A DNA stretch of 11,130 nucleotides from a virus. Its lineage: Duplodnaviria > Heunggongvirae > Uroviricota > Caudoviricetes. The notes beneath the pieces were generated by a model. It was given only the letters and a program-made list of their open reading frames with translations, was not told the origin of the DNA and did no database searches. The stretch lies in the IMG/VR virus record IMGVR_UViG_2778261303_000003. One strand, written 5' to 3'. Below, in pieces: positions 507 to 11,130 of the stretch (the first letter of the stretch is position 1; the number at the start of each line of letters is the position of its first letter). The position numbers were made by a program, and so were the translations under genes.

Positions 507-791
507 TTTGTCGCTCCATGCGCTTGCTCTTCATCTAGCGGTTAAAATATTACTTCAAATCTTTCTGTATGAAGATTTGAGCACGTTGGCCTTACATACA
601 TCTGTCGGTTGTATTTCCCTCCAGAATGCCAGCAGGACCGCACTTTGTTACGCAACCAATACTATTAAGTGAAAACATTCCTAATATTTGACATAAATCA
701 TCAACAAAACACAAAGAGGTCAGACCAGATTGAAACGATAAAAACGATAATGCAAACTACGCGCCCTCGTATCACATGGAAGGTTTTACCA

Positions 792-1202
792 ATGGCTCAG
801 GTTGCCATTTTTAAAGAAATATTCGATCAAGTGCGAAAAGATTTAAACTGTGAATTGTTTTATTCTGAACTAAAACGTCACAACGTCTCACATTATATTT
901 ACTATCTAGCCACAGATAATATTCACATCGTGTTAGAAAACGATAACACCGTGTTAATAAAAGGACTTAAAAAGGTTGTAAATGTTAAATTCTCAAGAAA
1001 CACGCATCTTATAGAAACGTCCTATGATAGGTTGAAATCAAGAGAAATCACATTTCAGCAATACAGGGAAAATCTTGCTAAAGCAGGAGTTTTCCGATGG
1101 GTTACAAATATCCATGAACATAAAAGATATTACTATACCTTTGATAATTCATTACTATTTACTGAGAGCATTCAGAACACTACACAAATCTTTCCACGCT
1201 AA
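792..1202 (+). CDS. ybcV: YbcV-like prophage protein (DUF1398-type as I recall), function unknown
   Basis: Long ORF 669..1202; I place the start at the ATG at 792 ([11 protein letters not shown]..., 136 aa) because it has a GGAAGG Shine-Dalgarno 8 nt upstream. The upstream GTG at 669 and ATG at 750 lack a ribosome-binding site. Confidence 0.8.
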
Positions 1203-1492: not shown

Positions 1493-1786
1493 ATGAAAAA
1501 AATGCTACTCGCTACTGCGCTGGCCCTGCTTATTACAGGATGTGCTCAACAGACGTTTACTGTTCAAAACAAACCGGCAGCAGTAGCACCAAAGGAAACC
1601 ATCACCCATCATTTCTTCGTTTCTGGAATTGGGCAGAAGAAAACTGTCGATGCAGCCAAAATTTGTGGCGGCGCAGAAAATGTTGTTAAAACAGAAACCC
1701 AGCAAACATTCGTAAATGGATTGCTCGGTTTTATTACTTTAGGCATTTATACTCCGCTGGAAGCGCGTGTGTATTGCTCACAATAA
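1493..1786 (+). CDS. bor: Bor outer-membrane lipoprotein (serum-resistance moron of lambda)
   Basis: 97-aa ORF MKKMLLATALALLITGCAQQ... with a lipobox (LITGC); essentially identical to lambda Bor as remembered; convergent with Rz as in lambda. Confidence 0.95.
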   Translation: MKKMLLATALALLITGCAQQTFTVQNKPAAVAPKETITHHFFVSGIGQKKTVDAAKICGGAENVVKTETQQTFVNGLLGFITLGIYTPLEARVYCSQ

Positions 1787-3561: not shown

Positions 3562-4644
3562 ATGAAAAAATTAACAGTGGCAATTTCTGCTGTAGCTGCA
3601 TCAGTACTGATGGCGATGTCTGCTCAGGCAGCTGAAATTTATAATAAAGACAGTAACAAGCTGGATCTGTACGGGAAAGTTAATGCTAAGCACTACTTCT
3701 CCTCTAATGATGCAGATGATGGTGATACTACTTATGCCCGTCTTGGCTTCAAAGGTGAAACCCAAATCAACGATCAACTGACTGGTTTCGGTCAGTGGGA
3801 ATATGAATTCAAAGGCAACCGCGCTGAATCTCAAGGTTCCTCCAAAGATAAAACCCGTCTTGCCTTCGCTGGCCTGAAATTCGGTGACTACGGCTCCATC
3901 GATTACGGCCGTAACTACGGTGTAGCATACGACATCGGTGCATGGACCGACGTTCTGCCAGAATTCGGTGGCGATACCTGGACCCAAACAGATGTATTCA
4001 TGACTGGTCGCACCACAGGTGTTGCAACTTATCGTAACAACGACTTCTTTGGTCTGGTTGATGGCCTGAACTTTGCAGCTCAGTATCAGGGCAAAAATGA
4101 CCGAAATGAAGTAACTGAAGCTAATGGCGATGGTTTCGGTTTCTCAACTACTTATGAGTATGAAGGATTCGGCGTGGGTGCAACCTATGCTAAATCTGAT
4201 CGCACTAATAATCAGGTTATCTACGGTAACAACGGTCTGAATGCTTCTGGTCAAAATGCTGAAGTATGGGCAGCTGGTCTGAAATATGATGCGAACAACA
4301 TCTATCTGGCCACCACCTATTCTGAAACCCAGAACATGACTGTTTTTGGTAATAACCATATTGCCAACAAAGCACAAAACTTCGAAGTAGTTGCACAATA
4401 TCAGTTCGACTTCGGTCTGCGTCCGTCCGTTGCTTATCTGCAATCTAAAGGAAAAGACTTGGGTGCTTGGGGTGATCAGGACCTGGTTGAATATATTGAT
4501 GTAGGTGCAACCTATTACTTCAACAAAAATATGTCCACTTTTGTTGACTACAAAATCAACCTGATTGATAAGAGCGATTTCACGAAAGCATCTGGCGTTG
4601 CTACCGATGATATCGTTGCTGTAGGTATGGTTTACCAGTTCTAA
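3562..4644 (+). CDS. nmpC: OmpC/OmpF-family general porin, prophage-encoded (NmpC/Lc-like moron)
   Basis: 360-aa ORF with a typical signal peptide ([23 protein letters not shown]), porin motifs throughout and C-terminal ...VGMVYQF; sits between Q and the lysis genes in the opposite orientation, as nmpC does in DLP12. Confidence 0.92.
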
Positions 4645-9891: not shown

Positions 9892-10906
<1,015 letters not shown>

Positions 10907-10956
10907 TGATAAGTCGCCGAGATGCTCGTAGAGCATACAGCGATGCAGGAGAATTT

Positions 10957-11004
10957 ATGGCACTTAATTTAGAAAGAATATCTTTTATAACCCCATTTGG
11001 GTAA
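10957..11004 (+). pseudogene. Start of an ORF with a strong Shine-Dalgarno downstream of cI, cut off after 15 codons by IS1
   Basis: AGGAG-aattt-ATG at 10946-10959; translation MALNLERISFITPFG then TAA, a stop supplied by the IS1 terminal repeat. It could instead be a fortuitous intergenic ORF. Confidence 0.3.
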
Positions 11005-11130
11005 TGACTCCAACTTATTGATAGTGTTTTATGTTCAGATAATGCCCGATGATTTTGTCATGCAGCTCCACCGATTTTGAGAACGACAGCGACTTCCGTC
11101 CCAGCCGTGCCAGGTGCTGCCTCAGATTCA
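10999..11130 (-). mobile_element. insB: IS1 insertion sequence, partial (right inverted repeat and 3' end of insB; continues beyond the window)
   Basis: GGTAATGACTCCAACTTATTGAT at 10999-11021 matches the IS1 terminal inverted repeat; the following 110 bp match the IS1 right end from memory with one mismatch. On the - strand this encodes the InsB C-terminus ...HYQ with stop at 11017..11015. Confidence 0.88.

Follow-up and report, generated by a model that had tools for sequence, protein, structure and literature searches.

What occupies the position directly downstream of the repressor gene in this prophage, the slot that houses rexA and rexB in lambda, and what has the arrival of an IS1 element done to it? 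The window analyzed here, by which we mean the whole stretch of 11,130 nucleotides from IMG/VR record IMGVR_UViG_2778261303_000003, ends within that element, and the first-pass annotation had therefore held that the cargo of the slot could not be seen. Only 14 native codons of it are indeed present, but uninterrupted relatives identify the cargo without any sequence past position 11130, and we are highly confident that the window carries the beginning of gene A of a rexAB-replacing cassette of the type found in phage HK542, cut by IS1.

Apart from this locus, the window consists of an ordinary lambdoid right arm with DUF1398, bor, Rz/lysozyme/holin, porin, Q, rusA, ninX, dam, ninB, ren, P, O, cII, and cro (Table 1). 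The closest phage, ev243, covers 86% of the window in two aligned pieces. The porin, the Bor homologue, and the DUF1398 protein are further cargo of a lysogenic-conversion type. The first gene of the cassette-bearing operon is cI, which ends in a TGA codon at 10904-10906; its product is identical to WP_001274762, which carries the RefSeq name LexA family protein, and has precomputed Pfam matches to HTH_3 and Peptidase_S24.

Table 1. Positions of features in the window and of related loci and protein entries in other records.
Feature	Record	Position	Strand	Basis
DUF1398 protein	window	669-1202	+	
Bor homologue	window	1493-1786	+	
OmpC/OmpD-type porin, 360 aa, between lysis genes and Q	window	3562-4644	+	
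cI repressor, lambda immunity type, 237 aa	window	10193..10906	+	open reading frame; aligned to lambda cI 3' end
cI-gene A spacer, with left mosaic joint and gene A Shine-Dalgarno site	window	10907..10956	+	alignments with lambda, HK542, and E. coli
Native gene A 5' end, codons 1-14 and first base of codon 15	window	10957..10999	+	MALNLERISFITPF
Truncated gene A ORF as now read, 15 codons and TAA	window	10957..11004	+	translation MALNLERISFITPFG
IS1 right terminal inverted repeat (IRR), 23 bp	window	11000..11022	+	exact match to GGTAATGACTCCAACTTATTGAT
IS1 right end, cut by window end; insB 3' end at 11015-11130	window	11000..11130	-	IS1A/IS1B identity
Inactivated-copy locus	L001	9896-10663		
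Inactivated-copy locus	L051	2369-3136		
Inactivated-copy locus	L050	2339-3106		
Inactivated-copy locus	L052	1982-2296		
Protein entries for inactivated copies	P0011, P0014, P0016, P0031			
B-family locus	L058	3139-4121		
B-family locus	L061	3195-4199		
B-family locus	L062	3183-4280		
B-family locus	L063	3073-4112		

An insertion into the lambda rexAB slot, as originally proposed, is borne out by the mapping of both joints with lambda. Homology to lambda ends directly after the cI stop codon and resumes, in intact relatives, at the gene B/rexB stop codon and a shared terminator (CCGGCCTCAGCGCCGG followed by a T run). Given that the left joint follows the cI stop and the right joint lies at the shared terminator, the cassette, located between cI and the immunity terminator and co-oriented with cI, represents an exact allelic replacement of rexA-rexB. 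For other sequenced phages, the match with the window ends at 10907-10909, which is the end of cI. Positions 10907-10999 are 100% identical to uninterrupted E. coli prophages and to phages HK542 and HK244, and the identity with uninterrupted relatives is likewise 100% across 10600-10999. The 119 bases at 10880-10998 are present in 51 of the complete E. coli genomes, with 100% identity in 32 of those listed, and none has an interruption at this point. It had been conceded at the outset that 10907-10998 might turn out to be lambda's own cI-rexA spacer, in which case the ORF start would be fortuitous and intact rexAB would lie beyond the IS1 copy, and the presence of rexA after a near-identical cI in the close relative ev243 speaks in favor of this. 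Put to alignment, however, the segment has no homology with lambda past the cI stop, and we rejected the idea on the ground that it does not align with the lambda cI-rexA spacer; its 100% identity with the HK542-type cassette, and the match of the 14 native codons to the conserved N terminus of a protein family under purifying selection, make it vanishingly improbable.

The first-pass annotation had also described an ORF with a Shine-Dalgarno site that starts at 10957 and is stopped by IS1 after 15 codons, and this proved accurate: AGGAG at 10947-10951 precedes the ATG at 10957-10959, and the frame is closed by a TAA at 11002-11004, inside the IS1 end. It is a genuine conserved gene start and not a chance ATG, as the 14 native codons match the gene A N terminus, the native 5' end being identical in WP_001207141 and in the HK542 gene A product AFH20417. 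A second ATG in this frame, at 10906, overlaps the stop codon of cI and would lengthen the gene A product by 17 residues, and its equivalent has been chosen by some gene callers (P0001; the annotation of L003). The Met equivalent to 10957 is the first residue in divergent gene A homologues (62-79% identity); because these begin at that Met, and because the Shine-Dalgarno site precedes it, 10957 is the likely start, and the ATG at 10906 is probably not used by gene A.

The IS1 event itself is ordinary. Elements of this kind carry the transposase genes insA and insB in a total of 768 bp and duplicate 8-9 bp of their target site. From 11000 to the end of the window, 130 of 131 bases are identical to the complete 768-bp IS1A and IS1B copies in L001, L050, and L051, a match that, judged by sequence, is far beyond chance. 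The sole mismatch with the three compared copies is a C-to-T change at 11053, which turns a Val of InsB into Ile near the C terminus (HDKIIGHY). The last 37 codons of InsB lie on the minus strand with the stop at 11015-11017, and the transposase genes point against cI transcription. Since homology of the flank with uninterrupted relatives runs through 10999, the element starts at 11000 and not, as first given, at 10999; its distance from the repressor gene, put at about 90 bp, measures 93 bp after the cI stop. A simple insertion would duplicate CCCCATTTG as the target site, and the left end of IS1 would read into CCCCATTTG, then ATAGCAGCGAAGAACC, and then the remainder of gene A; on the far side, CCCCATTTG and ATAGCAGCGAAG would lead into the remaining part of A, with B, the terminator, pL, and N after it. 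Alternatively, an IS1-mediated deletion or inversion, or recombination between two IS1 copies, could have removed or moved the rest of A-B and perhaps pL/N, leaving the prophage as a truncated remnant. The window ends within IS1, so that the far junction lies outside it; IS1 matches in E. coli genomes number in the thousands (median, 10 places per genome); and several relatives are rearranged or decayed prophages (L011, L012, L014, and L016). The exact junction was moreover absent from the 5426 complete E. coli genomes, GTDB representative genomes, IMG/VR, and JGI metagenomes, and from contigs that encode the exact cI protein of the window. Against such a rearrangement, which we consider unlikely though by no means negligible, both other IS1 insertions in the cassette are simple events that duplicated 9 bp of target and left the gene otherwise intact, and the window bears no sign of rearrangement.

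The uninterrupted relatives indicate what has been interrupted. Downstream of cI these carry gene A (144 aa, WP_001207141) and gene B (200-206 aa; WP_001278659 and WP_016064020), both annotated as hypothetical, and then pL and N, with intact A and B present, for instance, in L002 and HK542. Of 5426 complete E. coli genomes, 51 carry the cassette and 99 carry rexAB, so that the cassette is about half as frequent. Among cultured phages in the phage collection, only HK542 and HK244, both of lambda immunity, carry A-B; HK542_035 (AFH20417 and AFH20416) and HK244 04/05 are the same cassette, assigned to PHROGs 5893 and 5820. Intact A matches phrog_5893 (E 3.6e-50) and B matches phrog_5820 (E 4.7e-74), both labeled as unknown function. 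The immunity-region sequences of HK244 and HK542 reportedly stem from the work of Degnan et al. in 2007. The phage and window copies agree in their place directly after a lambda-type cI, in gene A (99.3% identical as protein), and in the spacer and gene A start (100% identical as DNA), whereas the phage copies are intact and annotated as hypothetical and that of the window is cut at codon 15 by IS1. Intact cassettes are recognized by an intact A and an ATGA-overlapped B; in the window, A stops at codon 15 and the visible sequence ends before B, and this copy is a disrupted member of the group.

Several lines of evidence point to A and B as a functional pair. The two genes were adjacent in every locus examined (about 45), and a 4-nucleotide ATGA overlap between them is kept in all seven divergent loci tested, which makes them translationally coupled. 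In informative pairs (alleles 62-79% identical), dN/dS ranged from 0.05 to 0.28, and it rose to at most 0.44 between near-identical alleles that differ by few substitutions, with dS saturated elsewhere, indicating that A-B is under purifying selection. A promoter scan from PRM to the terminator yielded no site except one 9/12 match inside B, with a total count below the shuffled expectation, and the pair lacks a strong promoter-like site of its own. Repressors of several distinct types precede A-B, without exception on the same strand, in E. coli, in viral contigs of the Klebsiella/Enterobacter type, and in Phytobacter, and 20 distinct proteins, not all of them repressors, are encoded upstream of it. 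At L003, an additional 113-aa DUF3024 gene (3658-3999) lies between cI and A-B and matches the PADLOC candidate PDC-S43 (E 7e-42); the DUF3024 gene is also found in L022-L024, L026-L031, L034, L037, and L038.

More distant relatives retain the architecture of the pair. The A family is tiny, as a profile search of 1.84 billion representative proteins returned only 24 relatives of A, and relatives at 25-27% identity also precede a protein with a disordered N terminus, a coiled coil, and a C-terminal transmembrane anchor, with one such remote A-like/B-like pair situated between an S24 repressor and N. Other remote pairs (about 26% identity) lie outside immunity regions (L053 and L054, 4001-4952; L055, 466-1406): those of Photorhabdus adjoin a T6SS tssM/icmF gene and tail-fiber fragments, and one on a metagenomic contig adjoins a contractile-tail baseplate module.

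The B family extends further than its association with A. In prophages of Enterobacter, Yersinia, Pectobacterium, and Cedecea, homologues of B follow a repressor gene with one partner gene in between, whose product belongs to the A family or is unrelated to it and has 120 aa (with CxxC...CxxC), 97 aa, or 99 aa. The unrelated partners of 120, 97, and 99 aa, found in Enterobacter, Yersinia, and Pectobacterium, matched no Pfam or PADLOC family, and the N-terminal region of B varies with the type of partner. A constant membrane partner combined with swappable soluble partners in a repressor operon is the pattern expected of a sensor-effector module expressed in lysogens. We advance, as a tentative and rather speculative generalization, an undescribed, modular class of prophage immunity-region defense that would occupy the RexAB slot across Enterobacterales prophages, in which a conserved, tail-anchored coiled-coil B effector in the membrane would be wired through its variable N terminus to interchangeable small cytoplasmic sensors (the A beta-sandwich and the proteins of 120, 97, and 99 aa) and would act by abortive infection. 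One Yersinia locus (L060) departs from this arrangement, the pair there adjoining a prophage baseplate module, and no repressor was called.

The predicted structures of the two proteins are in keeping with a soluble and a membrane-bound component. Gene A encodes no hydrophobic segment, and its AlphaFold2 model is an all-beta, Ig-like sandwich (pLDDT 72, pTM 0.64), so that the model depicts A as a putative soluble beta-sandwich; in BFVD it matches uncharacterized phage proteins of comparable length. Matches of the A-family profile extend to repeated segments in giant proteins, namely P0042 (4194 aa, 22 stretches), P0054, P0057, and P0070, one giant protein so matched being named a cadherin-domain protein, and these repeat matches are consistent with an Ig/cadherin-like repeat fold for A. 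B consists of a disordered N terminus, a helix of about 80 residues (61-140) in which glycines recur with a period of 7 residues, and, near 150-173, a single transmembrane helix that constitutes its one hydrophobic segment, followed by a short, Pro/Gln-rich tail with a PIIIQVP-like motif in most homologues. Its AlphaFold2 model is essentially one long helix plus the transmembrane helix, with low confidence outside the helix. Neither A nor B has a significant Pfam or NCBIfam match or a PADLOC-DB v2 family at E <= 1. Weaker similarities comprise sub-threshold coiled-coil matches of B, of the XhlA, DUF1664, and Baculo_PEP_C type, and weak or sub-significance matches in PDB profile searches (best E 0.005-0.009) to a pilin and to coiled-coil proteins such as hemagglutinin. 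Pfam DUF6941 is matched weakly by four of 21 A-family members (best E 0.002, 18.9 bits, below the 27-bit gathering threshold), with no match for the E. coli gene A protein.

The parallel with RexAB is one of position and organization. Both cassettes fill the same slot, from the cI stop codon to a common terminator, and both comprise two genes after cI of which the first product is soluble and the second membrane-bound. RexAB confers exclusion in lysogens (e.g., of T4 rII) with loss of membrane potential, and RexB is a multi-pass membrane protein. In contrast, A-B has no sequence or profile similarity to RexAB (hhalign probability of 0.2% for both A versus RexA and B versus RexB); A is an all-beta protein of 144 aa and RexA has 279 aa; B is a single-pass, tail-anchored coiled coil of about 200 aa and RexB has 144 aa; and A and B overlap by ATGA. 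More generally, the cI-to-N interval is a recognized mosaic hotspot that houses RexAB and BstA (PMC8585504, citing Degnan et al. 2007 for its mosaic diversity). BstA, like A-B, is encoded downstream of a prophage repressor in this hotspot, in lambdoid or P22-like prophages, and is presumably cotranscribed with it (PMC8585504), but it consists of one large protein, comes with a dedicated anti-BstA (aba) DNA element, and has no similarity to A or B. A likeness by description comes from another host phylum, with soluble and membrane pairs beside the repressor. The prophage-expressed, repressor-adjacent gp30/gp31 of mycobacteriophage Butters (PMC7542560) have reportedly been described as RexAB-like, and gp30/gp31 of mycobacteriophage Sbash are said to form a repressor-adjacent two-gene defense.

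What the cassette does, and what the window prophage has lost, can be proposed on this basis. From the layout, an intact A-B would be cotranscribed with cI from PRM in lysogens. It would act as a two-component, abortive-infection-type exclusion system analogous but not homologous to RexAB, in which infection would be sensed by a cytoplasmic partner bound to the variable cytoplasmic N terminus of B, this partner being A or, in other enterobacterial prophages, one of at least three unrelated proteins in its place, and the tail-anchored coiled-coil B would serve as the membrane effector. The slot had been singled out in the first-pass annotation as a place for an uncharacterized defense gene: a conserved, uncharacterized gene pair is what we found there, and its role in defense we infer from position and architecture only. 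On these two grounds, a defense module working by a sensor-effector mechanism has, in our estimation, somewhat less than an even chance of being correct. The insertion at codon 15 destroys A and leaves cI untouched. IS1 insertions are classically polar in either orientation, for which reason expression of gene B from PRM has probably ceased and the function of the cassette is probably absent from the window prophage. An IS1-disrupted, RexAB-like two-component exclusion cassette is the best overall explanation of the locus, and we judge it about evenly balanced between right and wrong. No phenotype or experimental characterization of the cassette was found in the searchable literature.

Two other functions deserve consideration. 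The cassette could act at the inner membrane to exclude superinfecting phages, much as T4 Imm, P22 SieA, or HK97 gp15 do, with B as a barrier to genome entry and A as its chaperone or stabilizer. The placement of a co-oriented cassette downstream of the repressor gene would suit this, as would a single-pass inner-membrane B with a short, Pro-rich periplasmic tail whose PIIIQVP-like motif is found in most homologues. However, proteins known to block injection are usually small membrane proteins that act singly, whereas B is mostly cytoplasmic and has interchangeable soluble partners that fit sensing better, and some remote B-like partners stop just past the transmembrane helix without any periplasmic tail; a block to entry is accordingly improbable. 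Rather unlikely, but deserving of more serious attention, is a role outside defense altogether, the pair simply riding the highly expressed repressor operon as a determinant of lysogenic conversion or of a phage-internal function such as envelope modification, lysis timing, or induction modulation, or as an addiction module. The lack of homology to any defense protein would agree with such a role, and so would the sub-threshold coiled-coil matches of B described above, the repeated loss of the cassette, the location of some remote relatives outside immunity regions (beside T6SS or tail genes in Photorhabdus, and beside a baseplate module), and the existence of other lambda morons that are not defense genes, such as bor, which is present in the window. 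Set against this, the characterized cargo of the slot, RexAB and BstA, is antiphage; a PADLOC defense candidate is coresident in some of the prophages; and a constant membrane partner with swapped soluble partners is typical of defense modules.

Returning to the RexAB-like exclusion cassette as our favored explanation, the insertion in the window is not the only lesion that the pair has suffered. The cassette is contiguous in 45 of its 51 E. coli carriers, and the other six comprise three with IS1 in gene B, one with a frameshift, and two with an in-frame deletion in B. IS1 has entered gene B at two sites, with 9-bp target duplications of AGCGCTGCT and GGGAGATTC and elements typed as IS1B and IS1A. 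In the protein database, P0011 is a frameshifted A, so that frameshifts are seen in both A and B, and P0014 (49 member sequences) represents the many contig-end truncations of B at the IS1 site. Including the window, IS1 has hit this stretch of about 1 kb three times independently among about 50 carriers, which looks like an enrichment, and the G+C content is 38% in gene A and 43% in gene B. Such repeated hits may reflect a target preference of IS1, relaxed selection in decaying prophages, or a cost imposed by the cassette, and, as a point against our favored explanation, the repeated inactivation could mean that the cassette is dispensable or costly.

Though known by sequence for years through the GenBank records of HK244 and HK542, the cassette is uncharacterized, and we regard it as a reasonable candidate for a new RexAB-like exclusion module. 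Its attraction lies in offering a clean alternative allele to rexAB in one and the same immunity region, with a membrane partner that recombines with several unrelated soluble partners, and, HK542 being a cultured phage, it is easy to test. A third cargo, one gene of 345 aa that matches neither Pfam nor PADLOC, follows the same cI protein in other E. coli genomes (L007, L008, and L014; 6737-7774), and one immunity type carries at least three cargos in this slot, namely rexAB, A-B, and the 345-aa gene.
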